A stretch of DNA of 56,678 nucleotides, the filler included, from Bipalium vagum (taxonomy: Eukaryota), in NCBI GenBank assembly GCA_037834085.1. It is 3 parts of 3 records of this genome, joined end to end, with 100 filler letters (N's around TTAATTAATTAA, not from the genome) between each part and the next. Parts side by side here need not be neighbours in the genome. Positions count along the whole stretch, not along the records: positions 24,020 to 39,746 come from JBBMKC010149397.1; 2 more parts are not named here. The stretch is one strand, 5' to 3'. The notes under the pieces were generated by a model. It was not told the origin of the DNA. It did not search any database and saw nothing but the letters and a program-made list of their open reading frames with translations. Positions 24,020-51,200 of the stretch are shown piece by piece. The first letter of the stretch is position 1. Each line of letters starts with the position of its first letter. The translations under genes were made by a program, and so were the position numbers.

Positions 24020-24267
24020 GACCCCGAAGAATTTTATAGCAGACTAGTAACTGGTGATGAGACATGGATTTATCAATACGATCCGGAAAGTAAAATTCAG
24101 TCTAAGCAATGGTTACCCAAAGGATCAATTGGATCAATCAAATTCAAAGCTGAACGGTCAATGAAGAAGGTTATGGCCACTATTTTTTGGTATTCTGAGG
24201 ATATAATCCTGGTAGACTTTCTCGAGAATCAGAGGACAGTTACTGGTAGGTACTACGAAGAGGTTTC
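24020..24267 (+). mobile_element. Mariner (irritans/Hsmar2-like) transposase fragment
   Basis: Uninterrupted frame DPEEFYSRLVTGDETWIYQYDPESKIQSKQW...KKVMATIFW...LVDFL...TVTGRYY, truncated on the left by the gap. Confidence 0.9.
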
Positions 24268-24952
24268 GTACAAATAAATACAATATTTTTAATATTATTT
24301 ATTCCCAATAGATTTTTAATTTCTGAATTTGATTTTATTACCAAATTAATGGCCTTACATTTCGTTGCACTTGAAATTGTCAAAATAGAGGTGAAAACGG
24401 TGTATTAAATCTGGAGAAAGATAGAATAACTCCTTTTTAGAACGAGATAAACATAACTTAGTAATATTATTAATGCTATTAGTTCTGTTCTTTTTCTTGT
24501 TCATTACAGAAAATCCCTCAGAGGCACTTTTATCAAGATTTTCAATTTTCAGTTCAATCTATCTCACACATATTTTCTACTAATTATCGTTATCTTCCAA
24601 TGCTTTTTCAAAGCAGTTTTTCCTTTTACTAATCTTGTAATGATATTGCAGACATTATTATAATCTTTTTCTCTTTTCAAACCTTCAAACACTCATACTG
24701 TGAAGGAAACGGATTTCTACGCAAAAAATAAACAAATATTCACAGCTTATGCACAGAAGATGCTGTAATCAGTCGCACCTCCCAAAATCAATTGATCTAT
24801 TTGTGCTACTGTAGGGAAATTATTTTTTAAGGTAAAATATCTTTTTAAAAAAATATACTGACCTAAATAAATACTTCACATTTCATTATTGTTTTCTTTA
24901 GCAACAAAGAAGAAAAACATTAATTTTTATGATTATAAATTAACTTATTTAG

Positions 24953-26540
24953 GTGATTGGGCCTCGAGAAAATAACTTTTATAACAAATTTGGAAACCCA
25001 TTGATAGCCCAAGCTTTTGTAGATGGATTTGTTGAACAAAAATATGGATTATATAAAAACCGTTTGAGTTATTTTGTATTCAAAATGATGGCTTATTACT
25101 TAAGGAAATCGGCAGAAATCAATGAAAACTGCCTTGATTTATCAAATATTGAAAATTTTACAATAAGTAAGTCATCCCAATTAATCAAATTAAAACAGTT
25201 CTTAATAAATATAATTTATTATATAATTGATAATATCATTTAGACAATTCAAATTTTGATAAAAAGTATTGCCTTAATCTGATTCTTGACAAAGTATGTT
25301 ATGTTTATATCTCTTCATTGTTGGGATCACATTCCAATGCAATTAATTTGTATTACAAAGCGGACAATTTTTCACCAGGAAAATGCAAAGCCACACACTG
25401 CTCGGATAACTCAAGACAAATTTGAAAACCAGGAAGAAGTTGAGATCTTGTCTCGTTTTGCCTAGGGTTCTGATGCTGCACCATCTGATTAGGGGTTGTT
25501 TCGACCCATTCAACACTTCTTCAGAGAAGATAGTACTTTGATCAGATAAGAATACTAGGGAGAACTGTGGCGTAAAACCATTGAAACTGATGGACTTTAT
25601 TTTGAAGAGTAGTGTTATAACTAACCCATTATATGGAGCTGATAAATACATTAATATTTTACTGAATTATATTAGCTAAGTTCAGATAGTAGTAAAGGTA
25701 ACAGTGGCAGAAAATTCAGAATCGTGATATCATGATAAATGGAAAATAAAATGGAAAGCAAATTAAATGAAGCAGGATTCAAGCTATAATGAAGAAAGGA
25801 AATTGATATCATTTAAGGGATAGGTTGCGACCAATATGGTTGACTTATATCAATTTCATGTAAAACCATTCTGATGATACCTCTGAAAACAAATATGAGC
25901 ACATCCTGATCTTGTTAATTCCAAAACCAAGATCTATTCTGATGAGAAGCTCCACGGCTCTACACCATTATTCATTGGGATCGTGCCTCTTTAAATTTCG
26001 CCATTTTTATTTTAAGACTTACTGATCCATCAGTGTAGTATAACAAATTCTTAATTGCAAAATGTGATATAGTTTTTAAGTTATAAGTTATTTATTATAT
26101 AAATATTTTAACATGTATTTTCTGATTTAAAGATTTTTAAAAATTTCTTTATTAGACCTCCAATTCTTCTGGATTATCAATTAGAAAATGTATTTCTAAA
26201 ATAAAAACTAGGTTTCCAAAACAAACTTCATAATTTGTTAATTTTAGCCATCAATGACACAGAAATCTGTGTCAGAACAAATATTCAGCTGATTACCGAC
26301 TTTAACCCAATAGATTATATGGATTTTGAAAGATACAATTTCGACTTTGTTCAAAACCTTCCACACAGAATGAGGAGCGCTGTGGTTATGGAACAAAAAC
26401 TTTTACTATATGTTTCTGTTAACTACCATATGCAGACGACCGTATTAATTGCTGCTACGTTGCTTTGCGTTTTCAGTTTTCTTAGTTCTGTATTCATTTA
26501 TCGAAACATAAAGTTGATTATACCTGAAGAAATATATTAG
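24953..26540 (+). CDS. 3' exons of a single-pass membrane protein, divergent nicastrin-like (5' part not found)
   Basis: Phase-consistent GT-AG exons 24953-25166, 25244-25293, 26156-26189 and 26248-26540. LSYFVFKMMAYYLRKSAEINENCLD resembles nicastrin TTYVVQYALANLTG...EQCQD, and NDTEICVRT resembles CVRS. A C-terminal TM (TVLIAATLLCVFSFLSSVFIY) is followed by a short tail. Confidence 0.5.
25345..25660 (+). mobile_element. Mariner relic in an intron of the nicastrin-like gene
   Basis: FHQENAKPHTARITQDK...SDAAPSD*GLFRPIQHF. Confidence 0.8.
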
Positions 26541-26595
26541 TTAATATAACAAAGGCTTTTTCCATGAACCAGGTTAATAGATTCATAATAATCCT

Positions 26596-26615
26596 AATAA
26601 TAATAATAGTAGTTC

Positions 26616-26657
<42 letters not shown>
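26596..26657. repeat. (AAT)n microsatellite
   Basis: Direct reading of the sequence. Confidence 0.9.
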
Positions 26658-26659
<2 letters not shown>

Positions 26660-26985
26660 ATCAAAATAATCCATTTCATTAAAATGCATTATCCGAAAAT
26701 ATAAAATAAAATAATACAATATAAGTAAATGTGAAACGGAGGCCGTATGGGAATTTTTCACTTAAAAAAACATACTTTTTAAAATCTTGTTTTTGGTGAT
26801 TTTTTTTGTAAAATGTAAAAAAAATTTTTCTTAAAAAAAGTTATAATAATAGAGTTTATACAATTTCTGGAAAATATTTTTTTGGTAATGAATGTTTAAA
26901 TAAAATAATTATAGAAGAATTGAAATCTGATATTTTTTATTTTTATTTTTAAGAAATAAATATCCATACGCTTTTAATACTAAAA

Positions 26986-29900
26986 ATGCAAGATAATTCA
27001 ATTGATCAACTTGAAGATTTCCTTAAATTTTAACCATCTAAGCAAAATTTTTTTGTGAAATTTGTAAAATAAATTATAATAAAAATAATTATTTAACAAG
27101 ACATTTTAAAAGTAATTTACATATTAAAAATATAAAAAAATTCAAGAAAGAGAAAGAAATTAATCACAATTTAATTTTACTTATGAACAAAATTTTTAAA
27201 AATATTTAGAAAATAATAATTTAGAAATGAATCATTTATTTAGAAAACCAGAATTATCAAGATTTACAAGATTTTATAATAATGAAGAAAGAATTCAAGA
27301 AATTTCTATTGATATGTTACCTATATTTGAAAAAATAACTAATTATTATTTTCAAAATATTAATTCATTTAAAATACAAATTCATTTAGTTTGTACATAT
27401 TTAAATCCTAATGGAATTTTTAGAGATTATAGTGTTTCTGTTCATCCAAGAATTGTTACAAAACAATAAGATATTAAAAATAATTTAGTTCAAATATTTG
27501 ATAGAATAAACACAAAAATGGAAGAATATGAAAGAGCTGGAAGTGTATTAATTACAGTACAATTCGCATAATCCGGTGTCTTTGGGACCGAAATATTTCA
27601 CCGGATTACACGAAAATCCGGATTATCCAAAATATACTAAAACCCAATAAAGTATATAGTATAAAGTAAAACCCAATAAAAGAGAACTTTATTTACAATT
27701 CATTCAAATAAAAGATCGTCTTTATTATTTTTTTTTTGAAGAAATTGGTTATTTGCAATTGTTTCAATCCGTTAGTTATTTTTGAGCTGAGATCATCTTT
27801 GAGAAGTTTAATAGCAGAGAGATGCTTTTTCAACCCGTTGTGAGTTTGTAAAAACAGCTGAATTGTATTCAAAGCCTGAATGGTTTCTGTTTGAGATGGC
27901 ACAACTATAACAGAACTTGAATCTTCAACTTCATTTTCTGCTATTGCGTTCGATTCCTTAAACATCTCCAAAATGTCTTCTTCCAATGCTCCAGCGGTAG
28001 TAGGCAAGATTTCATCCACTTCGACAAAATTTGCATATGAAACTTCCTGGGGTACTTGTATAAATGATCTTAATCGATCAAAAATATTTTCAAATTCTTG
28101 CTGGTCTTGGTTTGCTTTGATTTCAGCAAGTTCGTTTAATGATTCTGGTGCAAAACAATGTCGAAAGCAGTTTACCACAATTTCTTCGGAAACCGAATCC
28201 CATGCTATTTTGATCATATTTAAGGCACCAAGGAAATTTAAATGAAACTCCATTTTTTTTCATGACACAGTAGCATTCTCTGCATAAGACGCTTTCTGTA
28301 CTGACATTTCATTGCATTGATGATTCCACCATTTAGTGGCTGAATTTTGGATGTTGTATTCGGTGAAAGAAAATACAATTCCACATTTGTGAATCCAAGA
28401 ATTTGGTGATGTGCTGGACATCGATCGAGAATGAGAGCTACCTTTCGAGTTTCCTTCCTCATTTGCTGATCAATTGAATGAACAAACTCAGTGAAGATAA
28501 CACTTGTCATCCATGCTTTACGATTTGCACGATAGGTTACTGAAATATGTAAGACATTTTTGAAGCATCGTGGTTTTGCATATTTTCCAATAACCCAAAT
28601 AGGAAATTTCTTACCGGTCATACTAACACAGTTCAAAATTGTGAATCGCAGTTTGAATTTTTTCCCGCCATAAACTTTCTCATTCGCAAAAGCAAGTGTT
28701 TTATCTGGTGTTAATTGCCAAAATAGACCACATTCATCTCAATTCAGAATGTCATTCGGTGAATATTTTTGCATAATTTCCTTACTAATGGGATCTTTCC
28801 AGTGACAAATGGACTTATTGGATACAGAAGCGCTTTCTCCTGCCATTTTTTTTAATGTAACATCATGATAAGTTTTCCAGTGACTTAACCAACTCATATT
28901 AATTCACTTCACCAAGTTCTCTGGTAAATTTGGTGGCCTGTAGCCTGAGAATTCTCCACCTATTGGTAAATCTGGTCGATCAGTTCTCATTGCAGAAAAT
29001 CAATGCAACAAAACCATACCAGTTTGTGGAAATTTTGATTGCTTCATTATCCTGACTTTCCCAGAAACTTATTCTTTTTGGTAGTTATCCTTTATTTTCT
29101 CTGTGTTCTTTATAATGTCACTCAAGGTTTGCTGTTTCACACCGAAATAATTAGCAATTTAAATTTTCTTGAGATTTTGATGATTTCCAGCATAACAAAT
29201 ACTTTCATACTTTTTTCTAGACTTATTCTTTTTAAAGACATCTTGATATTTAATGCTAAAAAAATTAGAAATAATATTGACCTTTTAAATTAACAAAATA
29301 ACTTAAACAACAAAATACTTAAATTAACAAAATTAAATTAAATTTAAATTAAAACCCGGATTAAAAGTATGAAATCCTTTCGAGGGACTTCAAAATTTCA
29401 CTGTACTATGGATTTCACGAAACCGGATTGCGCAAAATTTGATTAGTCACAATTAATACGTAATTTATTTGGGACCGAAATATTTCACTGGTTTTCACGA
29501 AAATCCGAAAATAAAAAAGAATATATAAAAGATCATCTAAATGGAAATTATAGAGGAGCAGCTCATAACAAATGTAATCTTGAAGCAAAGAAAATTAATT
29601 TTGTTCCATTATATTTTTACAATGGTTCTAAATATGATTTACATTTAATTTGGTTGTGTTAGAATTCTAAATGTATTCATATTTTTTACTCTATATTTTT
29701 AAGAATTTATGGGTTCAACTTTAAAAGAAGAAGATTGTAAATTTTAAAAGAACATGGTTTTAAAAATTTAAAAGGAATATACCCATATGAATATACTCGC
29801 ACCGAAGGTGCTAGAGCTGAAAGCTCGCAAACAAGAGAAAATTTTGAAGATATAATAGAAAAAATGAATGAAGAAAATATTCCTCCATATCAAGAATTTT

Positions 29901-31188
29901 ATTCAACATTAAGGCAATCAAACATTGGAATAAAAAATTATATTACTGTTTAAGAAAATTGGACAGAATTAAAATGTAAAAATGTGATAGATTATACAAT
30001 TAAATATTTAAAAATAGATGTTTTAATTTTAGCAGACCTATTTGAAAAGTTTAGAGATGATTGTTTAAAATCTTATGGAATTGATTCTTGTTATTGTTAT
30101 TCATTACCAGGATTAACTTGGTTAGCAGAATTAAAATATACAAAAGTAAAATTAAAAGATTATAAAGAAGAATCATACGATAAATTATTATTTTTTGAAA
30201 AGGAATTCGAGGTGGAGTAAGTTCTGTTTTAGGAAACAGAAAAGTTGTTTGTAATAATAAAAAAGTAAATCCGAATTTGATGAATATTCAAAAATTTCTG
30301 GTGTAGAAGAATTTAATCACGTGATTAATGATTTTCAAAAAATCCAAATTTTGGGATAACAAATATTTTTAAAGAAAACTATTTAAAAAAAAATGGTTAT
30401 AATTTGGAACAACATTTTATAAATTAATGAATAATGCTTTCTATGGAAAAACTTTAGAGAATGTTAGAAATCGACAAGATATTAAAACAGTTTATGATTA
30501 TCAAAATTTTTAAAAATTAATTTCAAAACCAAATTATAAATATTCAACAGAGTGTAGTGAAGATGTTGTTGCTGTACATTTACTTAGAAAGAATATTAAA
30601 CAAGATAAATATAATTTTATTGGATTTACAATTTTAGAATTATCTAAACTTTTAATGTAAAGATTTATTTATGACTTTGTTGATAAAAGAATAGATGATT
30701 GGAAAATTCATTATGAGGATACTGATTCAATATTTTGAGAAATAAAAATTCCATTTAATTGATTTTTAGAAAATGAAGTTGGAAAGTTTAATGAATATAT
30801 TCATCCAACAGATTTATATAAATTTAAAGATGAGTTAAAAGAAGAAAATAAATTTATAAAAGAAGCAATATTTTTAAAATCAAAATGTTATTCTTATAAT
30901 ACTTTTGAAGAGGAAATGAGTGAAACTCGGGTGAAGCAAAGCTTCAACAAATCTTAAGTAAGAATGAAAGGAATAACAAAAGCATCTCAGAATAAATTTA
31001 ATTATGAAATTTTTAATGATTGTTTAAATAATAGTAAAATATTTATTTCAGAAAATTATAGATTAAAAACAAAAGAACATAATATGTATTTAATTAAAGA
31101 AAATAAAATTTCATTAGATCCTTTTGATGATAAGAGAATTATTTTAAATGTTGAAATAACAACATTACCATTTGGATATTTTTATTAA
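26986..31188 (+). pseudogene. polB: Polinton/Maverick-type protein-primed DNA polymerase B pseudogene, interrupted by a Tigger element
   Basis: N-terminal C2H2 finger (CEICK...RHFKSNLH) and EEYERAGS. After the insertion: KDHLNGNYRGAAHNKCNL (endonuclease VII-like), [68 protein letters not shown] (motif B), YEDTDS (motif C), LKSKCYSY and KISLDPFDDKR...TLPFGY. Many stops, frameshifts and deletions. Confidence 0.92.
27555..29507 (-). mobile_element. pogo/Tigger (TIGD4/6-like) DNA transposon, degenerate, one terminus lost
   Basis: TA at 27553-27554 followed by a CAGTAC... TIR. Subterminal gggaccgaaatatttcac...cacgaaaatccg recurs at ~29471-29507. The transposase (~29241 to 27693) has DECGLFW, GGKK..R.TIL, VIGKYAKPRCFK, NRKAWMT, LILDRCPAH and NTTSKIQPL motifs and is frameshifted. 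Confidence 0.93.
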
Positions 31189-33512
31189 AAATTAAATTAA
31201 AAAATGTAATTTTCGAGAAATTTTTTGTCTTTGAAAAAAATACTTCTTGTATACCTATTGTGGGGACTCCCAGGCCAACTACCAGGGGACAAAAAATAAA
31301 AAGAACCCTTGTTAACATTCTATGTGACTTCTATATGATCCAAATCCAATTTTTATATTTTTGCATGATCTTTGGGTAACTTAACCTACTTCTGATGTGA
31401 TTTAATTTTTGTCGAATCTTTTATATGATAAATCTGTGTAATCTTTAAGATAATATAATTATAATATTATTAAGTAGAACGTTTTAGTGAATGTATAAAA
31501 AATATATTGTAATTACTAGTAAATCCTGTAAAATATTTGAAATTAAATAAATAATAAAAATATAAATAAAATTCATAAAAAAATATGGAAGAAATTAAAA
31601 ATAATTCTAAAATTAGAATAAATAACAAAAATCATTGCTAAAAATAAAAAGTGATATTAAAATTAACTAAACCGTCACAATAAAAATCGTAAAAAAATAA
31701 TTATAGTATATTAAAGTTACTATAAATAAAAAATAACTAAAAAATTTTAATATAAATATAAAATATTTGTTAAAATAAACATAAGAAAAATAGCAGAAAA
31801 ATTCAAAGTGTCAATTTACAAGAAGTGTTCAAAAAATTGTTATTCTCGTCTCCAATTACAAATTAAATCGGACAAGACTATATCAATTTTCAATATAACT
31901 GACGGATACTATTAAATTACTCGAGTGGATATCATTATAAAAGTTGGAATGAGAAGAAACTAAAAACATTCAATTCAATTCAATAGCATACAGGAGAAGA
32001 GAAGTAAAAACGTTCGAATCTACGATCCCAAGAAGAAGTCATCCATTCAAGAACAGAAATCAAATATTCGACTCATCAAAGAGAAATTCAATAACTTGTG
32101 CGAAGATAGAAAGAGATACAAAATCGAAAATCAGACCGACGATCAATTCTAAATAAAGCTCAGAATACAGAAGACCAGGATCCTACGTAGAATATTATAC
32201 AACAAGGAATTTCAATAGTTTTTGATAATTTGTAATTATTATTATTAAACTTTGAGAATTGCAATTTGATTCCAAATTGGACAATTCTATGTCTAACTTG
32301 ATTACAAGTTAGTAAATAATTAAGTTAAATAAATAAATCGAAGTAACCGGATAGATCCCCGTTTACTTTCGAAAACATCAAATAACCTATAACTCTTTTT
32401 GTTCTTCCATTATTTATTTTTTTGCCTTCTCGACGTCAAGTAGGGCGGAGAGGCGCTTTTTACTTTTGGGGGCTCTTGAGGATAAGATAGCGAAGAGCAT
32501 AATTAATATCATTCTGATTCTTCTCAGGGATTTACTAGTAAAATTTTATTTTTTCAACAAAGCTTTTAACCAATTTTTAAATAAAGATTTTAAATTTATA
32601 AAAATTGTTTTGATTTGACTTAGTGATCGAATTTTTATCTATCGAAAGTCACGTTTACGAATTGATTAAAAACTATTGTTTACTTGCACGCAATTTACAG
32701 TTACCCAGTCGATTATTAAAAAAAAAAAAACCAACGCAACCTCTCATATAAACCGAACGTAACACACTCTAAATCCTTCTGATCAAATGAGCCACGTTAA
32801 GTTTGGAAAGATATTAAAAGTTCGAATTAACTCAACCTCATCTCAAAACTTAAATGTTTTTATATATAAAATTAGCAATTAATTTCTTTCCCACTTTATA
32901 TTATAAAATAAAAACTTTATGGTGAAATCTTTATTGAAAGTAGCACAGATTTTTAAAATTTAATTTCATTGTGTACCTATTCCTTTATTTTCCTCGATCT
33001 GCGTTCCCTCATTCCAGTATAAGTGCCCAATTTTATACCGAGGGTTTCTATACCTAAGTTTTCAGAAACATCTCCATTTTTAGTTTAATAAAAATTAAAT
33101 ATTTTTTACCTATATAAGTATGTTTATTGTAATTTCAACAAACAATCAATGCATCCTCTTCAGAGACTTTGACTTGTCAAGAAGCTTACTGAGATGTCTA
33201 CAGAAAAAATTTAATTTGTCGATTTTCCAACATTCTTTCTGTAATGAACGTGCTCAATAATTATTCGTGAACAAAGAATGTAGAGATTTTATTATTATTA
33301 AATTTTTTATCATCATCATCACCATTATACAAGTATAAACATGGCTATCATACAAACCATATATTTCAAATATCAAAATTAACAGTAAAATAACAGAGCA
33401 ATTAGGACTGATATAATTTATAAACTTAAAAATTTTTTGGTTTAAGTGATTGTCACAAAGAAAAAATCTTCATAAAAATTTTCCCGTACATATTTAAAAA
33501 GATAAACGATCT

Positions 33513-35635
33513 TCAATCATAGACCGGTCTAAATGTTGAATTTTCAATGGGTTTGTTTCTGTTTGAGTTCGAGGACCTTGCGTAATCGGGAAGAGCGTCT
33601 TGCAGCGACTGAATATCAGGATTGTTGTCTCCAGTGATTGCCATGTCTCTCAACCCGGGTAATTCAGCAAAAGGTAACCAATCCTTTCCTGTAAAAAATA
33701 ACAGTTACATTTAACATGATTGTCGTGTATGATAGAAATACTGTTTCTGGAACAATCAATACCGAAAATGTTAATAATTTATTCATCCATAAAAAATCAG
33801 CCAACCTATTGGTCGGCCGGCTGATATTCTTTCACTTTCCGTTTCTAAAACCGTCTGGTGTCGATGCCAGTGTAGATCACAAGCGGCACAAACAAATGCC
33901 GACTGGAACAGTGAACATCCACAACCGGAAACTTTGCACTTGTGAGGAGGCGGATATGCTTTGTGATCTTCATGAGAATGTTTGCATCGACATTTAGCTT
34001 TGTAGTCTTCTAAGACAAAGTTTCTCCGTTTTTTCAACCAAAACTCACCAGAGTCTTCCGGCCGAGATGGTATCCAAGCGAAAGCTTTACACAGGCAACC
34101 TGTCTAATATAAATAAATATTTGCTGAGTTCAGGAAGTCAAACTGTTTTCAACAAAATAAACTGACCTGTAAACATTTCAATACTGGTTCATGACCAGTG
34201 AATGTTTCATGTTGACTGAAAGAGTGGGAACAAAAACATTTCCCTTTCGACGAAATACGTACACAATCTTGTTGATTCATGGGTGGATCGATGGGTCTGT
34301 AGCTGACATACAATCCTAAAAGTCTCAAGTAAATAGTAAATAAAAAGTCAATCATGAAATTAAATATTATCACATTTGAAAATTATCTTTTATTGTACAT
34401 ATTATCATTTTTATGTTACACATTAAAGTTCAACAAACAGGTCAATAAGAAATCTTCACTGAGATCTACACTTTCATAAGCCTGCAAAATCTATTATTAA
34501 ATATAAGCATTCATTAAACAATGTAATCACTGTAACATGTTCCCCTGGAATTTTATTGATAAGGCAATTTTATTCCAAGTTCAATCCAAACAAATAAGGT
34601 TGATGGATATGCATATTTAAAACCGAAACATATTGCGGAAACATATCCTAAGAAAAAGGTAATACGTATTGATTAGAATGAATTTTAAAAGAAGTGATGA
34701 ATTAAAACAATATATTATCCGAAAATAGATATAAAAATAAAAAAAATAATTAATATTATTTATTATTATTATTTATAATTACTTATTTATTTATTATTAT
34801 TTTATTAAAGGGGAATATTAATGAGATAATTGTGTAGGATGGTAAATAGGGTAAAACTTTTAAATATTTTTTATTTAACCAATATTTGGATATAAGAGTC
34901 ATATACGAAAACTGTAAACGTATTTATTTAGAATTTAAAAGTAATAAGATTATTGGATTTGCATGTCAAAATGATATATGCAAGCATCCAATCCATAGGG
35001 AGCTTATTTAAAAAAGATTACTTACATAATCCTTGACATAATTTAAAAATGTCAAACATGTAGTCATTGACAGTTATTCAACTGATATTGATTATGCTTC
35101 AAGTATGAAAAGAAACCGAGAATGTAAGAGTTTATTGAAAAACCTAGGCGATTTCAAGAAGCCAAAAATATCAACTTTATAAGAAAAAGATCTAAGCATC
35201 CCTCAAACGAAATTCAATTTAGAAAACCTAACCAAACTTTAGTTGGTAAAATGAACATATCACAAATCAATGCAAGGAAAAGTGAATATATCTAATTTCT
35301 TCAATGAATAAAGTTTTTAAAGCTTTCTTTTTATATATAGCCATTTATAAATAGGAACTTTTGTATACTACTAGAAGTGATAAAATGAAAATCGGACCTT
35401 ACCAGTCTTGCAGGCCTCCATACAAGCTTCTTGTTCTGGAGTGAATAACTCTTTCAGTTGGGCAGCAAAATTGTCATTCATTGCCCTAGCCACATTTATT
35501 ACATCATATTTAGAAGCAGGCTGAATTTTTTTCACTCTCAGTTCTGATACATAAAATATAATTATATAATTATAAAATTAATAATAATTATATAAGTTAT
35601 ATTTCATTCTGTACCTTTGGAGGAGTATGAAACAT
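33513..35635 (-). CDS. FAM221B: FAM221-family (DUF4475) protein, FAM221B-like
   Basis: Exons 35615-35635 (uncertain), 35403-35520, 34167-34315, 33806-34103 and 33513-33688 are phase-consistent (~253 aa). Motifs: VARAM...ELF..EQEACMEACKTGLYVSYR, DCVRI...KCFCSH, WIPSRPEDSGEFWLKKR, AKCRCKHSHEDH, CAACDLHW..HQT..ETE.ER...GRP.G..WLPFAELP. Confidence 0.85.
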
Positions 35636-36699
35636 TTTAAAGAAAAAACTATTTGTAAAAAAAATTATTATTATTATTCAGATAAAAACAAATTAATTCT
35701 TTAAACATCTTCCAATAATAATAACGCTTTGATTATATTTGAATAATTGTTTTATTATTAAATAATATTTAAATATGTTATTTTATATTTTTGTTACAAA
35801 ATTAAAAAAAATTTTTCCAGCCCTTTTATAATTAAAATTTTATATTATTGATCTAAAAATAATTAATTGAAATAAATTTTAATGAATTTATTTATTTCTT
35901 CCGAGAAAAAATGATACTAATAATACCAGAACATGGTTGTAAATAATTATTGGTCTATAGGAAAATCCAAAAATCGTTCTAAAATAAAATTCTACCGAAT
36001 ATTCACAAATATTGTCATTTTCAATAAATTACTGCAGTTTTTATCATTTGTTTCTTTATTCAGACTTTTTATTGTATACAAATTATTCACTATCAATTTA
36101 CATTGATGGCTTTATTGAGAAAGATACTTCCTCACAGGGAAATTCAGGATTATTTTCGGGAAAGTTTCCCATTTAAGACCCCATTGCTCGGATAATGGGC
36201 ACTTGGTGATCTTGTACTTAAAGGAGTGCAAATCAGTAAAATCTGCTTAGAAATCCAATACGATAGTTTTCTTTATACGAAGAGAATTATTAGTAGACTT
36301 TTTTGATTCAAATACGTAAGTTTCAAATACTTTTATTAAAGTTCATTTAACCGAACCCGATGGAGTTCAGTCAATTTTAGATGCATTTAACTGACGATTC
36401 AATGGTTGGTTGAATTCTCACGTTCAGGCAAGGATTCCTTATTTAATTTCATTGTTAATAAAGTTTTCTTGTTGAACTGATTATTTATTTTTCTTTCACC
36501 AATAACACTAACTATTAGTGAGGAGAAAGATAACGACTCAGAGGTCAAATTCCTACTACTAGTTTAAAAAACAATTGATTATTAAAATAAGCTGTTATAC
36601 ATATGTCCTGAATTTAATGAAAATATTAAAAATTTTTGATATTTTATAATTGAAGAGTAAATTTTGTTCAGATTTTACGGTATAAATGATGTTTTTTAA

Positions 36700-37394
36700 A
36701 ATTATACATCAACTTTATGCGGTCTGTGATAAAAATGTGCTTTTGTGAATGCACCTTAATTAAAATTCTGACTTAATAAAAATAATAATGCTTTGTCCAC
36801 ATAACTAATTCTTATTAATATAAATGAATCGTGAAAAACGTTTGTGGCTATGAATTATCATTAATATTAAGAAAAGTATAAAAATATTATTTTGGATCTA
36901 CTGACAAATAAAGAATTCATTTGAAAGTGTACTGCAATGAACTGGAAAAAGTTACATTTTAACATGAGATAGAAAAGGCCAGGATTGGTTAACAGAAAGC
37001 GTATGATGTTCCATTAAGACAATGACAGATCTCTTAAAAGTTTCGTCATTCGTCAGAAGCTGTTAACCTTTGGTTAGGATGTCTCATCCACCATATTCAC
37101 CACATCTGGCACCAGCAGACTATTACTTATTTTGGTCTTTACAAAATTTTTCAGATGGTAAATCTTTCAATTATAATGATGTCATAAATATAAATTGTTC
37201 AATTTTCCGGAAGTAAAAATCAAAACTTTTATAAACAAAAAATCATGTTTCTACCAGAAAAGTAAGAGAAGGTAGTGAACAAAAGAGCCAATATATAATG
37301 TAATAAAATACATTCCTAGTATAAAATACAATTTAGTTAATAGATGGACTTTGTTAATCATATAAAAATCGCAATCACTTTCTCAATATCCAAA
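36700..37394 (+). mobile_element. Mariner (cecropia/Hsmar1-like) 3' relic with right TIR
   Basis: KRPGLVNRK..MFH*DN and HPPYSPHLAPADYYLFWSLQNF; TIR aaaatcgcaatcactttctcaatatccaaa followed by TA. Confidence 0.85.
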
Positions 37395-38639
37395 TAGTAA
37401 CAATATTGAATATATCATTTTTTATTGGATTTAAAAATGGGAAGGTTTTCTCACATATCATGTATAGAACATTTGTATATTATTAAGTATCAAAGTAAAA
37501 AATCGAGTCTAGGGTTTCGGAAATTTTCATGTCTTTTTAATTGTGAAAATAATCAATCATTTTAGTGATATTTAGAAAAATATCATAAATTATGCCAATC
37601 ACGAATGATTTTTATGAAAGGAAGACAAATAAAACTCTAAACAATAGTACGGGAAATTTAATACCAATAGTGGCGGCCCAGATTAATGGGAGTCCAAGAA
37701 ATTTCGATGAGCAAAAATTTTAATGGATTTTAATGGTTTTTCAATCTTAAAAATATGTTTAAAGTATTAAAATATTTCTTTATTTTGTGATATTTGAAAA
37801 TAAAGTTAACATTAAATTGATTATATTAATACCTCCAGATGGTAATTTATAACTTCCTTCAATCATGTTACCGCTTTTATCGGTGGGAATAAGAGATTTG
37901 CTGTTTTTGATTAACGAGACCTAAAATAAAATTACCCAATTTTTCAGAAATTCGATATTGGTTTACTTTATTATTTTGATTAACCGTCTTTTTATTCATT
38001 TGTAAAATTAATTTCGTTTTAAATAATGTGAATATTTAATTCAATCTCGCTTTTTGAATTTCAAATAAATAGCGTTGTCAAAGTGATATTTATTTACATT
38101 GATTAAATAAATCGTAGTTAATTAAAATAATTTTTGTAATTTTATGCAATTCTTTAAGAAAGAAGTTTATTAAAGCATTATTTTAGTTTATTACTTTTTT
38201 AACCACAAAATTATTATTGTGTCTGATCTTTTCACTTTATGTATAGTAATTTTTAGAAAAAGTTATAGAAATATATGAAATAAATTGAGATTAGATTTTT
38301 TTATTAAAATGAAAATAACACTAGAATTGATGTATTTCAGATATATACAATTCTCAAAGTTGTAATCAGATATAAGATAGTATATCATCAAATTGTATCA
38401 TGCGATTTTTCTAATCTTTGCTTAACTGTGGGTTATATCTGCATTTATAAAATAAAATTGTAAAAATAGTTTCGTGAATAGTATATTACATGATATAACT
38501 TTGAAATTTAATTTTACTGTACAACTTTTTCATTAAATGATTGCAATCTTTACCAAATAATTACTATTCTGATAAAAAATAACAAATGAAATCTTAAAAT
38601 ATTTTGTGTAATATTTTAAATAATATTTTGTGTTTTAAT

Positions 38640-39130
38640 CACGTCTTGCATATCATTTGATTAAAGCGCAGTCATAGATATTTTTTGAGGAATACATTGG
38701 AAGATGAGGAACTCTGAGATTATCTTCCAGACAGCAAGGGTGAATCTCATTAATGAGTTTTTCCAAAGGAAATGTATTATTCTTAGTGTTTTAGAGAATC
38801 AAAAGGTTTAATCAAAACAAAAATTATTCTGGAAATCAACAACTCAAATACTACTGTGTACTTGTTAGTCCTGTGAGAAAGTTACGAAAGAAGCCAAAGA
38901 ATCAAAAGCTTTATCTTTGGTATAACAACACCCCAATTCACAAAACACATTGAATTATGCATTTAACTACTGGAAAAGATTTATACTGGTTATACACCAG
39001 CCGCATAGTCCTAATTTATCGCCTATTAATTTTTTATTGTTACTTTAAAAACCTTTAGAAGGATAGAAAATATATTCAAATGAGGATCTCATATCATATT
39101 CTTATATCATATTTCTTCAATGAAACAGAT
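38640..39130 (+). mobile_element. Highly decayed mariner relic
   Basis: HQPHSPNLSPINFLL (cf. HPPYSPDLAPSDF.LF). Confidence 0.5.
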
Positions 39131-39133
39131 ACA

Positions 39134-39348
39134 AGTAGTGGGGAAATTAGGTGTTACGACAAAGACCCAAACCTCAATATCAAATACCAAATACTGAAAT
39201 ACCACAATATTGAATTTCGAATAAACCCAATTTGATTTTTATTTTTTTCAATTTTATGAATACCAAATATTAAATACTGCAGTATCACAATATCGAATAC
39301 CGAATATTGAACATTGGAAAGCAGCGTAACCCATAATTTCCGCTACTA
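39134..39348. mobile_element. ~215-bp MITE-like element with imperfect TIRs and internal AATAC(C/T) repeats
   Basis: agtagtggggaaattaggtgttacg matches the reverse complement of cgtaacccataatttccgctact. The interior is built from aatacc/aatatc units. Confidence 0.55.
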
Positions 39349-39746
39349 TCACATTTTGTTAAATTTCAAATTTTCACTGATTATTGATTTTCATTGATTT
39401 CATTGTTAATTTTGCAAATTTTTTTAAAAATTTTTATTATTTTCATAATTTTTATATTTTCAAATTTATCCAAATTTGTTTTGTTTTTCATGATTTTTTT
39501 TATAAATTTTCAATTTTATGAATTTCAAAATTTATGATTGTAACACAACACCTATTAATCTATCATTCTATTTTTTTTAAATGTGTTAAGATCCTAAAAG
39601 ATGGATAGATGTTAAAAAGTGGAGCTGACTGTGTTTAGGTCTTAACGTTTGAAGGTTGCTTATTTACGCGTTCGTTAATATTATTTAAAGTGATTGAGAG
39701 AACGATTTGATTTTTAAAACTTTTATTTTTATTAAAATAAAGTATA

Positions 39747-40371: not shown

Positions 40372-41571
40372 ATGGATTTAAAAACTGAACCACAAGAACT
40401 TTTACAGAGAATTGTCCGTACAATTCCCGTTGGGTATGGTGGCTATATTATCGGTAAAAAAGGAAGGTATAAAACTTATAATTAAAAGTCTGCAAAAACA
40501 ATTAGTGATATTTTAGTTTCAAGTCTCAGTTAAATTCTGAATTTGGTGCTGAATTCCGTCTAGTTAACTTTCCACTAGACCCTTTACGACAAATAATTTA
40601 TATTGACTGTCCAGCGGACCAGTATTCATTGGTAGAAAAGAAAATCGACGAAAAAATAGCTGAAATAAATAGAAAAATAAACTCTAACACGATCAACACA
40701 GTTACCAGTAACCCAGATCAACTAAAAGTAAGATATAGAATAGCCACATGTTAAATAAAACCAGATTGAATCATTGTTCGTCTAGCCAACTGTAGAACTG
40801 GGTAAAATGATACCTGGTCGAGTCATAAACATGTCTCATTCTAACGACCTCATTGTCATTCTTGAGAATAACAAAGAAGCCAAAAAGAAATACGAAAATA
40901 TGCACATTTCCATCAACTCAGAATACGTAAATTCGCCGCCTCGTGTTCCATTTCCAGTCGGGCCAGGTTGTATTTGCATTGCACTGGGATCTCGGGCCAA
41001 ATATTATCGAGCTCTCGTTCTGGGTTATGAATATGACTTAGCAACGGTATACTTTGTGGACATTGGGAAGTTCGAGCTTGTGCCTTACAATAGATTATTC
41101 AAGATTAAGTAAATTTATTAATTATTTTTCTTTCAATTAACTATTTTCAGAGTAAAATATCTAGATCTGCCGTTTCGAGCCGTTCCGGCTAAATTGAACA
41201 ATGTTTCCATGAACACCAATATCGACGGAATCGCCGATGTCGTGTACTCCCGTTTCCTTCGCAACGTGGACTCGACACCAAAAAAAGTCTACTTGTATTT
41301 CACGCATGTGGAGTGCTGTATTCCCCACGTGAACATTTATGTCCAGAAACCGGGAACGGAGATGATCCATAATGAATTTATTGATTTGTTGGAGCTGTTA
41401 ACGAGCGTGCAGTTGGCCGATACGGTACCATCGAATGTCGATCTGTCTCTCAGTGAACGGTTCATTTGCAAATCCAACTGTGACATTCGGTTCCATCGGC
41501 CAATCAATTTTGCCTATTACGAATCGGTTATGAGCATTAAATCCCTTGACGATGTCAACAGAAACAATTAA
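40372..41571 (+). CDS. KH + Tudor domain protein, AKAP1/Spoonbill-like (349 aa as modelled)
   Basis: Exons 40372-40466, 40517-40727, 40786-41108 and 41151-41571 (introns 50, 58 and 42 nt). KH domain: IPVGYGGYIIGKKGS...FPLDPLRQIIYID. Extended Tudor: PRVPFPVGPGCICIA...YYRALV...YFVDIG...KYLDLPFRAVPAKLNNV, matching AKAP1 PTLPTPVEITVICAA...WWRAQV...DFVTLPFQ. Confidence 0.85.
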
Positions 41572-45205: not shown

Positions 45206-48200
45206 TTACGACTCATATAACGATTTGATAACTTCTGAATACATGTCCACAATGACCATCCTTTTGAGCTTCATAGTGGGACCTGTGGAAATAGAAAATA
45301 TTAAAAACATCGTTTTTTCAATAAAAATCAATAATAAATCATACCCAATTCCTTTCCGTGGATGGAAAAATCTTTAGGAAGAATAAACCACTTCTGAACG
45401 TATGCCGCCCTAGAAACGGACAGACCGTTCACTAATCGAATCTCTTTATCAATAAATGCTTTCAGTTGTGCATTATTGGATTCCCGGACTTCTGAGACAG
45501 TGGTTGCATGTACGCCGATAGCTTCGAGACTCCGAATGGCAGCTGGAGTCAACTTTTCTGTGGGACCTTGAGTAACAGGATCCACGAGTGTCTGAAGGAA
45601 AATACAGACAAAATCAACATAATGATTTTTTATCACAATTCGCACTTTAATAGTCAATAAACAGGATATAAATTTCTGTCGATCACCGATAAGCATTGCG
45701 TTGCTGACAAATGGAAGTCGCTCCTTGATTTTATCTTCAATCGGCACCGGAGCTATGTTCTCACCACCAGCTGTGATTATGAGCTCTGAAAATCAGTCAG
45801 TCAGTTTTGGTGACATGTTAACAATCATCCTTCGTACCTTTAATTCGACCAGTTATCACAAGAAATTGATCATTCTCTATTTTTCCCAAATCTCCAGAAT
45901 GAAGCCATCCCTCGGCATCAACGGTTTCTTTTGTCTTTTCTTCAGCATTAAAATATCCCATAAAAACATGTCGACCTCGCATGCAAATCTCTCCAATATT
46001 ATTTTCATCGGGTTGTGAAATTTTTAATTCCGTACCCTTCAATAAAACCCCAGCTGATCCTAGTTTTACCTACCAAATCCAAACACAATTAATGCCAAAC
46101 TGGATGAAATTAACAAATGAAAAATACATAGTATCTAAGCTCATTGTGTTACTTATCAAAAATAAAGATAGAATTTGGTTATTGATGTGTCAGCTTAGTC
46201 TACAATATTATAGATAATTCTAATTGCACTAATTATCAGAGTTTTTATCAATTGAGTGAAAGGTCCTGCCAGAGAAAAAACAAAAGAAAATATTGAGAAA
46301 AATTTTAATCTTAATACAAAAATCTAGTGAAAATTATTCTAAAAAAATCAATATAAAACACAAAATTGATTCACATAATAATTAAATAAAAAAATCAATA
46401 AATAAATCCAATTTCTGATAATAAAAAATAATTATTATTAATTTTTAATCAATTAATAGAGAGGAATTTATTTCCAGTAATAACTAATAACGTGATAACA
46501 TTGAACAATGAAACAAGCTTTCATGAATTGATTTTCGATTTTTATGAATATATAAAATTAGAATTTTTAATTAAAATCAATATTAATAATAAAATCCTCA
46601 ATTTAATAATCAATTACATTTTTTACAAGAAGCTCAAATTCTTTGCGTCTTGCTAAAAATAAAAAATATTCAGATAGTAATATCTTTAACAAGACTGCTT
46701 AACAGCACTTTGATGTCCACAGTACTTCTATAAAACTATTACTAAAAAAAAACCATAATAATAATAATTTATAGTTCGCAGAATCAGTCTGCTAAAATTA
46801 TAAATTCTTTTATTACAATTAATTGATAATTCTCAGTGAAGTCTCTGTGATTAGTTGGTAGTAGTCATTTAAGATCTAAATAACTCTTAACTACTTTTTT
46901 GGTCTATTTGATTGATTTATTAAAAAATATCAAAGTCTGTATAAAGTTTTGTCAAAATTAGATTGTGTAATTATAAATTATTATTACAAATAATATTGAT
47001 TTTTAAATTCCATAACTTTTATTCAATGAAATCAATATTATTTTTTATTAATGAAAATCAATACCTTATCATTAGTCCCAATGGTATGGGGACCACAGCA
47101 TTCAGACATTCCGTAGATTTGGTGAATTACAAAGTTTAGACTGAGGAAGTAGTCTAAAGTCTGTTGAGCTAACGGTGCAGCAGCCGATGCTAAGTAAACA
47201 CATCTATCTAGACCCAAAGCCTTTTTCACACGGGAAAATACAAGACAATTTGCAATATAGAATGACCATGATGGAGATTTACCACTCAATATAGCAATAG
47301 TATTTCGATAACCGACACTCTTTGCCCAAGCTGCAATTCGCTTTTTAGTGGCGCTAACACTGGATCCAATCTCTTGCATTTGTTCTTGAATTTTTTCGAA
47401 AACTCGAGGTACTCCAACAAAAAATGTGGGTCTCACCTAATATTAACAGTAAATATTGATTAAAACAAGAAAACAAAGTAGAGCTTTATTAATATAAATT
47501 TTGAAGAAAACCTTTTACTCATTAAACGTAAACGACACATAAATCACGTTAAAATAGACCTAAGCCATCAAAATGTTAACAAAGACTAATTACGTTCTAA
47601 TTTTAAAGTTTTTACTCAACATTGCTTTCAGAGATTGTATTTCAGCAATTAAGGATACGGTGCGCGTCAATCACTCCGTTTTTAATAGATTTAGACTGAT
47701 TAGTTAAAGATTTTGCCTTTTGTTACAAACAATTAATGACCCTTTAGAGGAGGAACAAATGAACAGGAAGATAAATTACTTTGTCTTCCATACAACCATA
47801 AAGAAAATGTAAGTTAAATAGTAAACCATATCGTTATTTGCAATGCAGGTGGTCTTCAAAACCTGTATCATATTATTGTAACAAAATCAATAAAATAGGA
47901 TGTTAAATTTATTTCTTTGTTTTAAATGTCATTTTTAATATTTAAATTAATACAATTTTTTCCCGAGAAATTTGTTCAAATCAAAACTATTATTAATTTA
48001 AGTATTTAATTAACAAATTCCGTTTCCATGAATATGTTAGTAAAGATTTTCGCCAAGTCGTATTTTAATGTAGGTTTAATTAATAAATTTAGGTTTAATT
48101 CATAAATTATTAAAAATTAATAAATTTCTCGTGAATTTAAATCTATTAGCGTCGTTATATTGCACAGACACAAAACGATTTCTATTATAATAGAGACAAA

Positions 48201-51200
48201 TTAGTTTCGGTGAAAAGGTTTCAAATATCCAATCTCTTGGTTATCAGTAATAATTTCTGTTAGCAAAGTTCTGTTTTATAATAAAGTATTAATAGATAAC
48301 ATTGTTAACACAATGCAAGACCAAAATAAAAGTGGTTAAGTGCAGAAAAAAATTATTTATATTAAGCATTTTAATAAGTTATGTTGGGTGAAAATGTGCT
48401 CTACATAGATTTTTATAGATAAATTTGTAAATTGTATAAGAAATTCGATGAAATAAATAATTTAATTCGTTTTAATCGAATAGAAGGCTGAAAAAAGCCG
48501 ATCGCACTTAGAATTTTTCAAGAGAATGGCAAATGCAGAACGACTTTAAATAAAAATCAATAAAATTTTGGTATGTATTAATTGTATTAAATACAAATAA
48601 AAGATACTTAACAGTAAATTTGGTTCTCAGGTAACTCTAATATCAACAATCTCAAGATAACTATTTAAGACAATGGAACGTGAAAGTAAAAATAACTTGA
48701 CCTAATTAAACGTTAAAAAATCACATGGTACATAAAATAGAATTATTACTGACTGATGAAGAACTGGAAAAGTTTGAAACATGTTTCATAAAAATAAATG
48801 ATTAAACCAATTTTGCTTAGATTTGAAAGAGTCAATTTCAGAAATGTAAAGTGCTGTTTTCACAACATTAAAAATACAGAAATACAATTGGTAATAGAAT
48901 AGAAATATTTTCTTAAAAAAAACAATGTACGACACAGGATGTCAATTCTATTTTCATTGTGTCCGATAAACAAGAACTGTAGATTTATACTATACTGTCA
49001 GTTCAATATAGATTAAATATAGCACTTATTTCCGTGATTGATGAAGACCAATATTAGCAGCACTTTGCAAATGCTAAAGATGATTTTCTAACTACTTTTT
49101 CTCTGTGAGACATTAAAACAAAATATAACCAATTGTGAACAAGTCCATTATTAAATATATATATTTAAATTATCATTATGATACCTATATGATTCAAGCA
49201 ATTTTTTTTATTATTATTACCATTATTGATTTGCACCGATTTATTTCTTCAGAAAAAACATAACCTTTTGTATTATTTACAAAAAATGAGTTAGAAGTCT
49301 TATTATAGAGTACAGTAAATTATTCCTGGTCATTACAGAATTCATAGGAATATAAATAGTGATCTGAATTAATGTCTGATTTCTTATTAAGTGTGAACAA
49401 GAAAAGTTTGATAATGTAAAGGAAAGCTTTTAGAAGAATTGAATCTTCAATTAGGTTTTAGGTCATTTTTCAGGCTGTCACATCTTATTAATAAAGTTAA
49501 GATGATGAAAATAAAGTGTTCTGTGATATAGCATTGAAAATCATTATTTACTATTTATATTCGCATTCGATACAACTGATCTAATTTAAGATTGAATTAT
49601 TTTTATACAGTTATTTTTTGCTAAATAGGATGAAGGAAAAATTTCAACAGTCTTCATAAAATAACCAAAACCCTGAATTATTTCGATCTGCTAATGAATT
49701 AATGATAACAAAACTCTCGGTATTATATATTTTTCGAATCTTTCTTTTATAATTATAACATTTTTTAATAAAATCCATACAAAAAATTAATAACTTTATT
49801 AATAATATATCTTAACTAAACACTGATCGATTTACGAGTGGAAAAATAAAATATCACCTAAAAATTTAAAATTTTGTCAATATTTATAAGTTAATTTCCA
49901 TTGATTGTATAAATGGAGATAGAAGAACTCTTCAAAATATGATATTAGTTGCAAGAATTATTAAAAACAATTTTAAATAAAAAAATTACTTCTCTCAGCG
50001 TTTTCCCCAGAGAACCTTTCAATGCATCTGGTTGGGCAAAGTAAATGGTTGTACCTAATACAACAGTAGATATGATGTCAATCAGATTCGCAGCGATATG
50101 ACTTAGAGGCAAATACGATATTATCGAGTGTTTGAAAGGCTCCATATTCACATGTTTCACGGACATTTTTAAAGTGAAGATAAGCTATTTATTTTTCGAT
50201 TAATTAATAAAGCAATTTATCAAATTGAGCACTAACATTATCATGAGAAAGCATTACACCCTTTGGAAGACCGGTGGTTCCACTAGTGTAAATGAGCATT
50301 ACGCAATCATTTGATTTCATACTCTGCAAACGGTTTTCAAGCTCGCTTTTTGTGTCTGACGATTCAATATTCATAAATTGAGTCCACTGATAAAAAATTA
50401 TTGGTTTCATTATTTTATTATTAAAAAATTATAACTGTATATATTGGTATAGAGCATTTCTGTTTAGTTTCTTCTTTGATAGACCCCGTATATTTAATGA
50501 AAGCTTTTAAATTTGGAACTTCAGGCAATATGGAAATCAGTCTTTCCAACTGTTCATCTGTCTCCACGACCACAATTTGCATATTACAATCATTTATTAT
50601 AAACTTGCAAATATCAGCACTATTTGTCGTATATATACCACAAGCAATACCACCGGCAAATATTGCTCCCAGCTCACTTATAAACCATGCAGGGTGATTA
50701 AAACCCATTATTCCAATCGAAGCTTTACGATTTAATCCAAGCTAAAACAATGTGAACCAAAATAATCAACGTCTAAGTAAATAATAGTATCATTTTTATA
50801 ACAAATTAATTAAAATATTTTAACCTCCTTGAACCTATTCAAACAAAAATCTCAATCATATATGAAGATATAAAAACATATCTAATATGATGAACTATGA
50901 AAATGATCAACACCAAAGAGTACCACCATCCAATGTTTAATTTTTGATATGGAAAACGAAAAGGAAAATTAGATTGGAACATTTATAACATGAAGAATTA
51001 CCGATTTTCGATGAAGGTGTTGCGGAAAGATGAAAAAGAAACAATCTGAGTAAAATAAAAATATTTTATAAATTCCAAATTGAAGTTTTTTATTATCAAT
51101 TAGATCAAGATAAAACAAAGATAAGTTTACACATGATGTAATTTGACGCAAGTCTTATCTGTTAAATTCGCGGAAATAATCTAATGTCTTTTAGACATTT

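Follow-up and report, generated by a model that had tools for sequence, protein, structure and literature searches.

In a stretch of 56,678 nucleotides (nt) from the genome assembly of Bipalium vagum (GCA_037834085.1), hereafter called the window, two short GC-rich modules interrupt what remains of a Polinton/Maverick gene for protein-primed DNA polymerase B (pPolB). Both modules are real insertions, each built of two adjacent hairpins, and hundreds of copies of such gene-less double hairpins are present in the Polinton/Maverick genes of this genome. The reading developed here, to which we give a probability of about 0.6, is that the modules are inserted, gene-less double-hairpin elements of 30–33 bases, likely moving as folded single-stranded DNA (ssDNA) dumbbells during Polinton replication. 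What emerges is a real family of very small mobile elements, abundant in this genome, which are of the double-hairpin kind but live in a new type of host and follow one rule of geometry and one of target choice.

Ever since double-hairpin elements were described in fungal mitochondria, the question has stood how units without genes can move. This genome offers copies by the hundred, stem families by the dozen, empty sites that match exactly, geometric and target rules and a few candidate viral enzymes, so that the mechanism becomes testable with oligonucleotides. The 30-base element also forms a third layer of parasitism, after the host and the Polinton, and it probably gives viral enzymes a way of gaining new peptide loops.

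Two insertions in a broken polymerase gene

The window is a pack of three stretches, and the finding lies in the second of them (24020–39746, contig C149397), where three features concern us first:

29531..31188, plus strand: broken Polinton/Maverick pPolB gene hosting both inserts, recognised by its stops, frameshifts and internal gap
29798..29827, plus strand: module 1, a 30-nt double-hairpin element of the DH1 family, recognised by empty sibling sites, family copies and fold
30916..30948, plus strand: module 2, a 33-nt variant of the DH2 family, recognised by empty sibling sites and the family pattern

The polymerase copy is 49–53% identical to the intact polymerases P0003 and P0004, and the match of one of its fragments to PF03175 (E 8.7e-5) lies below the curated Pfam cut-off. 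It is a broken pseudogene with many stops and frameshifts, an internal gap of about 200 codons and no open reading frame (ORF). Sibling copies are numerous in the genome, with at least 77 matches, many of them at 73–93% identity. A preliminary description of this DNA had both modules inserted in frame in an ORF; each is indeed free of stops in the polymerase frame, but the ORF does not exist, and because the host gene is a pseudogene the in-frame status is only local. Read in that frame, module 1 adds 10 codons (RTEGARAESS) and module 2 adds 11 (MSETRVKQSFN).

The two hairpin pairs lie where that description had placed them, the true ends of the modules being slightly wider. They do stand out from their surroundings: the whole 56.7-kb window contains no other double hairpin, where a local shuffle yields 0.005. 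Module 1 consists of a C, a 13-nt hairpin with a GAA loop, the dinucleotide TA, a second 13-nt hairpin with a GAA loop and a G, which sets the two loops 15 nt apart. In module 2 a 4-bp hairpin with a GAA loop is joined by a 3-nt linker to a 6-bp hairpin with an AAA loop, for a loop spacing of 16 nt. As DNA, both modules fold into two triloop hairpins (folding z = -3.6 and -4.0).

Alignment with sibling polymerase copies, a check proposed at the outset, shows both modules to be presence/absence indels (insertions or deletions). Site 1 is empty in all 13 other aligned loci (11 contigs), through a 30-column gap in 12 and a larger gap in one, and site 2 is empty in all 14 (12 contigs), with gaps of 33–34 columns. 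Genome-wide, the junction pattern of site 1 is filled once and empty 18 times. Both module peptides are missing from the closest intact outgroup polymerases, and contigs from the runs of two other organisms (X1 and X2) skip a net 33 nt at site 2. It is on these grounds that both modules are taken as insertions. The opposite polarity, with hairpins that are ancestral or due to chance and empty alleles that are precise deletions, can appeal to the established fact that hairpins may be skipped during replication. It is however hardly credible, given that empty is the majority state at site 1, that the closest intact outgroups lack the peptides, that the same 30-mer recurs at many unrelated sites, and that chance would yield 0.005 per window; for site 1, outgroup and frequency refute precise deletion outright.

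Site 2 falls in a stretch of variable length among polymerase homologues. The AlphaFold model of the intact relative P0004 has a pLDDT of 37, too low to place the inserts on the protein surface. In run X3, from another organism's Polinton, the site-2 loop (window 30897–30963) holds a different hairpin, and in run X1 a DH1 element at window position 29831 is joined to a flank found at another site in this genome.

A family linked to Polinton DNA

The counts of hairpin patterns in the genome were compared with those of reversed controls. The first hairpin of module 1 (GCACC-GAA-GGTGC) has 52 exact genomic copies (control 0) and is followed by TA and the second hairpin in 28 of 30 loci. An additional pattern gave 59 matches against 0, and the degenerate DH1 double-hairpin pattern gave 331 against 0. 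For module 2, the AAA hairpin matched 98 times (control 8) and the DH2 family pattern 6 times (control 0); a partner stem lies 15–17 nt away in 46 of 56 contexts of this hairpin, and 36 of its 56 loci contain a Polinton hallmark match.

The 124 DH1 contexts sampled reduce to 38 site clusters, every one of them linked to Polinton genes in a genome of 441 Mb (24 directly and 14 through homologous flanks). Among the Polinton genes that the flanks match are pPolB, rve integrase, A32 ATPase and double-jelly-roll capsid. These four hallmarks all occur across the sibling loci (tblastn to Pfam-matched proteins), and pPolB is the only one present in the window. Polintons also have terminal inverted repeats and a 6-bp target duplication; the copies here are fragmented. 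DH2 is found in a second polymerase clade as well, one without significant similarity to the first and, by our own reading, VSR-like. The same 30-mer occurs at many unrelated sites, and 16 of the 38 clusters have an empty partner, with 10 clean gaps of 30, 30, 30, 30, 31, 59, 60, 60, 60 and 90 nt.

This distribution bears on the possibility of a host micro-transposon, similar to a miniature inverted-repeat transposable element (MITE) or a short interspersed nuclear element (SINE), which host enzymes would have driven into Polinton copies already integrated. Every copy found is integrated and decayed, and the two inserts in the window belong to a single copy alone, as such an origin would have it. 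We nevertheless consider it very improbable, in view of the 38 clusters confined to Polinton-linked DNA, the absence of terminal inverted repeats and of any fixed duplication, the codon-multiple lengths, and the existence of insertions common to many copies. The enzyme searches also speak against it: the Y1 HUH transposase profile (PF01797) had no match in this genome, whose assembly may be incomplete, while the control matched 6 of 14 genomes, and of 21 GIY-YIG matches in the genome the 20 inspected included none with a Polinton hallmark. These 20 loci are presumably Penelope-like or SLX1-like. A GIY-YIG exon lies in the region of L459:1501-1659, which we likewise take to be SLX1-like. Of 309 Polinton-linked ORF pieces 94 were selected, and the 82 of these that were scanned against Pfam contained pPolB only, and no transposase. 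Confinement to Polintons, codon-multiple lengths and insertions common to many copies together suggest that movement took place while the virus was replicating.

The hairpins might instead be functional viral signals under selection, acting as terminators, as sites of priming or packaging, or as a protection of displaced strands against nucleases, and the preliminary description had indeed allowed for a cis-acting role in replication, packaging or processing. The largest DH1 cluster, with 56 of the 124 contexts, is a single insertion just downstream of a gene (just after its stop codon, by our reading), and mini-hairpins are found at phage replication and transcription origins (PMC13037366). 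Such a role is improbable for the family as a whole: its members occupy many arbitrary, scattered positions that are empty in most siblings, nesting reaches three levels, DH1 orientation relative to genes has no strand bias (9 versus 6), and the hairpins are essentially absent from distant Polinton-like loci, 97 of 98 of which (27–37% polymerase identity) have at most one. At single sites the hairpins may have a secondary use as signals.

Further afield, the exact DH1 and DH2 patterns gave 0 and 0 matches in IMG/VR, and the DH1 pattern gave 0 in GTDB genomes. A looser hairpin pattern returned at least 120 matches, mostly unrelated, along with giant-virus modules whose loop spacing is 18–40 nt and not 15.

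Length, loop spacing and target

A catalogue of 161 indels among sibling copies was divided, by thresholds of our own setting, into 41 GC-rich hairpin inserts and 120 others. Length is exactly 30, 60 or 90 nt in 20 of the 41 hairpin inserts versus 8 of the 120 other indels (p 1.5e-8), the 60- and 90-mers being nested or tandem 30-mers. Multiples of 3, whose excess had been put forward as a test, make up 29/41 and 57/120 respectively (p 0.011). Two 90-nt stacks (L329:1488-1577 and L394:1198-1287) each combine three 30-mers that differ from one another; in one stack two of them stand in tandem, and in the other the nesting has three levels.

The typical unit begins with C and ends with G, and between them lie two hairpins (13+13, 11+15 or 15+11 nt) joined by a 2-nt linker. 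Of 138 double hairpins (53 stem types), 116 have a distance of 15 nt between the loops, and the same spacing is found in 22 of 47 non-DH1 stem types when anything from 9 to 26 nt is allowed. Insert length equals twice the loop spacing, within 1 nt, in 18 of 32 inserts (30:15, 32:16, 33:16 or 17, 39:19, 42:21). This ratio would be that of a symmetric dumbbell joined end to end, with its junction opposite the linker. Among 313 GC-stem triloop hairpins in these loci the loop is GAA in 142 and AAA in 67; GAA triloops in DNA are described as exceptionally stable and nuclease-resistant (PMC13037366).

The ends of the inserts are sharp, with an ambiguity of 0–2 nt in 33 of 36, no constant repeat and no fixed target duplication. 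DH1 prefers the target (A/T)(A/T)(A/T)G^(C/T)TT, and the four nucleotides before its junction are TTTG in 9 of 38 clusters, AAAG in 8 and AAAA in 4. In 16 of the 38, the insertion point lies exactly 1 nt past an older hairpin's loop on the 3′ side (loop+1), compared with 4.4% of random junctions; any other offset accounts for at most 3 clusters, and when clusters are merged automatically, loop+1 holds for 14 of 34.

Empty sites, hundreds of copies at unrelated positions, nesting, confinement to Polintons and codon-multiple lengths bear out the early suggestion of a tiny mobile double-hairpin element. The evidence for mobility is indirect but strong, and that the double-hairpin modules are a mobile element is very probable indeed.

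How the elements may move

In the mechanism that we propose, strand-displacement replication by pPolB would expose single strands, on which the element would fold and thereby bring its two ends together across from the short linker. A structure-specific nuclease would then cut there and at the target hairpin, after which the ends would be joined and copied. Within each stem, template switches would invert loops and change stem sequences, thus creating new families with the same geometry. Since Polinton genomes are densely packed with genes, lengths in whole codons would be the ones to persist. The single-stranded step is probable, because pPolB replicates by strand displacement and GAA triloops are stable and nuclease-resistant.

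The nuclease would most plausibly be an endonuclease VII or VSR-like domain fused to Polinton polymerases, of which the window retains a trace:

29531..29584, plus strand: endonuclease VII-like motif remnant of the polymerase (DHLNGNYRGAAHNKCNL), a putative structure-cutting nuclease, from translation and from PF02945 on relatives

The relatives P0004 and P0006 match PF02945 with E-values of 5.5e-5 and 3.5e-4, just below the curated cut-off. Endonuclease VII cleaves branched and mismatched DNA. HNH or VSR domains are reported in other Polinton pPolBs (PMC10748475). We name the polymerase-fused nuclease as a tentative candidate for the enzyme. Upstream of a polymerase, a small ORF (L211:2526-2933) resembles Eco47II-type restriction endonucleases (atlas score 0.96, in a cluster that is 85% viral) and may be a second candidate.

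The main rival needs no nuclease at all. In copy-choice, or ectopic gene conversion, pPolB would stall at the closing pair of a mini-hairpin, switch template to another site with a hairpin by means of a few matching bases, copy the element and switch back. The insertion point agrees with this, since on the 3′ arm it directly precedes the closing base pair. Junctions also resemble each other far more than random ones do (mean 10.0 versus 3.2 contiguous nt), although split sites and nested insertions in paralogous hairpins confound this comparison. DH2 occurs in all four of its loop-flip isomers (10, 6, 3 and 1, with 7 unclassified, of 27), and such isomers are described as a template-switch footprint (PMC8794818); flips indicate template switching at these stems even at one and the same site (L451 versus L449). 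Yet the ends are exact at unrelated sites, among them the largest cluster, with its 56 contexts, and site 1 of the window, where the likeness extends over only 4 nt, and copy-choice alone leaves unexplained why length is twice the loop spacing. Template switching by pPolB likely explains the loop flips and may explain insertion; as an account of the whole, copy-choice seems to us rather unlikely. Exact ends at unrelated sites, together with the length rule, favour a structure-reading cut-and-join, and it is towards this precise reaction that we lean.

Several observations weigh against a dumbbell that is cut and joined during Polinton replication. The link to the nuclease is a guess from the presence of a domain. 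Under automatic loop calling the length rule is missed by 14 of 32 inserts, in some because loops are misplaced in decayed copies, in others genuinely. Site 1 of the window has no loop+1 target, and its junction resembles another site over only 4 nt. The other indels are themselves enriched for multiples of 3 (57/120). Two tests showed no clear avoidance of stop-containing frames, the first with 1 of 9 inserts in a stop frame (p 0.14) and the second with a stop in 4 of 12 inserts versus 6.3 expected. Single GCACC-GAA-GGTGC hairpins without the usual second hairpin occur in 2 of 30 loci, and a lone hairpin lies outside Polintons, at a GIY-YIG locus (L461) in unrelated DNA of 44% GC. Independent DH1 events are fewer than the 38 clusters (34 after automatic merging, about 23 by eye), and the clusters are not fully independent, as a composite may move in one piece and a decayed site may be counted as two. 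Internal covariation of DH1 is weak, the 99 distinct 30-mers giving 16 compensatory, 64 G-T and 153 broken pair cells, many of the last resembling CpG-type decay. For this reason the early remark that the architecture is kept while the stems differ holds between families, with their 53 stem types, but not within DH1.

A broader picture is conceivable, albeit doubtful: a shape-defined minimal mobile DNA, consisting of a symmetric ssDNA dumbbell whose two purine triloops are separated by half its length and whose ends lie opposite a 2–3-nt bubble, which a polymerase-fused nuclease would cut and paste, and which would jump between co-resident Polinton lineages and supply new loops of 7–15 residues to viral proteins in several hosts.

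Relationship to known hairpin elements

Among described elements, the modules come closest to the double-hairpin elements (DHEs) known from the mitochondria of Allomyces and fission yeasts (PMC10085805, PMC2800124), which are described as short, GC-rich, patchily distributed pairs of adjacent hairpins, presumed mobile, with no flanking duplication and no known enzyme. Here too two GC-rich hairpins lie side by side, they are present or absent at homologous sites, and there is no target-site duplication (PMC2800124 for this feature of DHEs). Unlike mitochondrial DHEs, they reside in a nuclear-integrated DNA virus, flanked by Polinton genes on genome contigs, and they have a near-fixed length of 30 or 33 nt, a constant loop spacing, loop+1 nesting and many copies in coding DNA. 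As they are not organellar, and as the comparison is one of description and not of sequence homology, the modules are not classed as mitochondrial DHEs.

Yeast mitochondrial GC clusters such as GC42 are likewise small, palindromic, GC-rich mobile units that merge and shuffle; they carry a putative target duplication (AG for GC42), whereas none is fixed here (PMC4478555). With no terminal inverted repeats and no fixed target duplication, the modules belong neither to the MITEs nor to the yeast GC clusters.

Elements of the IS200/IS605 and REP/BIME kinds, served by Y1 HUH enzymes, are also hairpin-defined and likely single-stranded, and their circular intermediate (PMC6006769) resembles the circle suggested by the geometry of our element, which would fit a circular single-stranded intermediate. 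Unlike them, the whole element is 30 nt long, its host is a eukaryotic virus, no guide tetranucleotide appears to be common to the families, the junction bias being that of DH1 only, and no Y1 gene was found in an assembly that may be incomplete; membership in IS200/IS605-REP is rejected for want of a Y1 HUH transposase in the genome. The NTS/SRM repeats of Ssn GIY-YIG nucleases are dispersed short hairpin repeats as well, reported to be cut as ssDNA (PMC11893778), but they are bacterial, and here no GIY-YIG locus of 20 lies in a Polinton; this class was rejected because no small GIY-YIG gene is linked to the repeats.

The palindromic elements of Rickettsia add residues in frame to proteins, but they are about five times longer and bacterial. 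A literature search on Polintons and viruses with hairpins, palindromes or in-frame inserts, Repbase and subscription papers lying outside it, found no report for Polinton genes. The papers found on double-hairpin elements appear to concern organellar genomes and likewise yielded no report for Polinton genes. One preprint on Polinton-like viruses describes terminal palindromes only.

Related hairpins elsewhere and neighbouring features

There are hints of similar elements in the Polinton proteins of another host and in giant-virus contigs. Among polymerases P0006–P0011 and P0123–P0150 (ENA assemblies, apparently from another host), close relatives with open frames differ by short in-frame peptides, one of which falls in the same loop as site 2. 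Six of nine such inserts (4 of 7 distinct events) could encode a GC hairpin with a GAA/AAA-type loop, against 6 of 108 control windows, a comparison made on proteins only. Giant-virus contigs L083, L101, L131, L132, L145, L146, L149 and L151–L154 contain composite modules of GAA/AAA-loop hairpins, some inside long open frames. The same GCACC-GAA-GGTGC hairpin is found among them, with a loop spacing other than 15. Of another nature is a 123-nt insertion with tRNA-like sequence (L412:1301-1423), which is missing from the sibling L415.

In the window itself, Polinton-like segments are separated by an unrelated feature:

27696..28738, minus strand: DDE_1 transposase fragments between Polinton-like segments (PF03184, E 1.2e-30 on 28241-28738)

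Homology linked to Polintons resumes beyond these fragments, at about 26750–27554. Pieces of host genes are found at 40509-41568, 45331-50741, 33786-34382 and 4423-4949 (Tudor, AMP-binding enzyme exons, FAM221, Mos1 helix-turn-helix and IFT140-like), an assortment that is consistent with an animal host.

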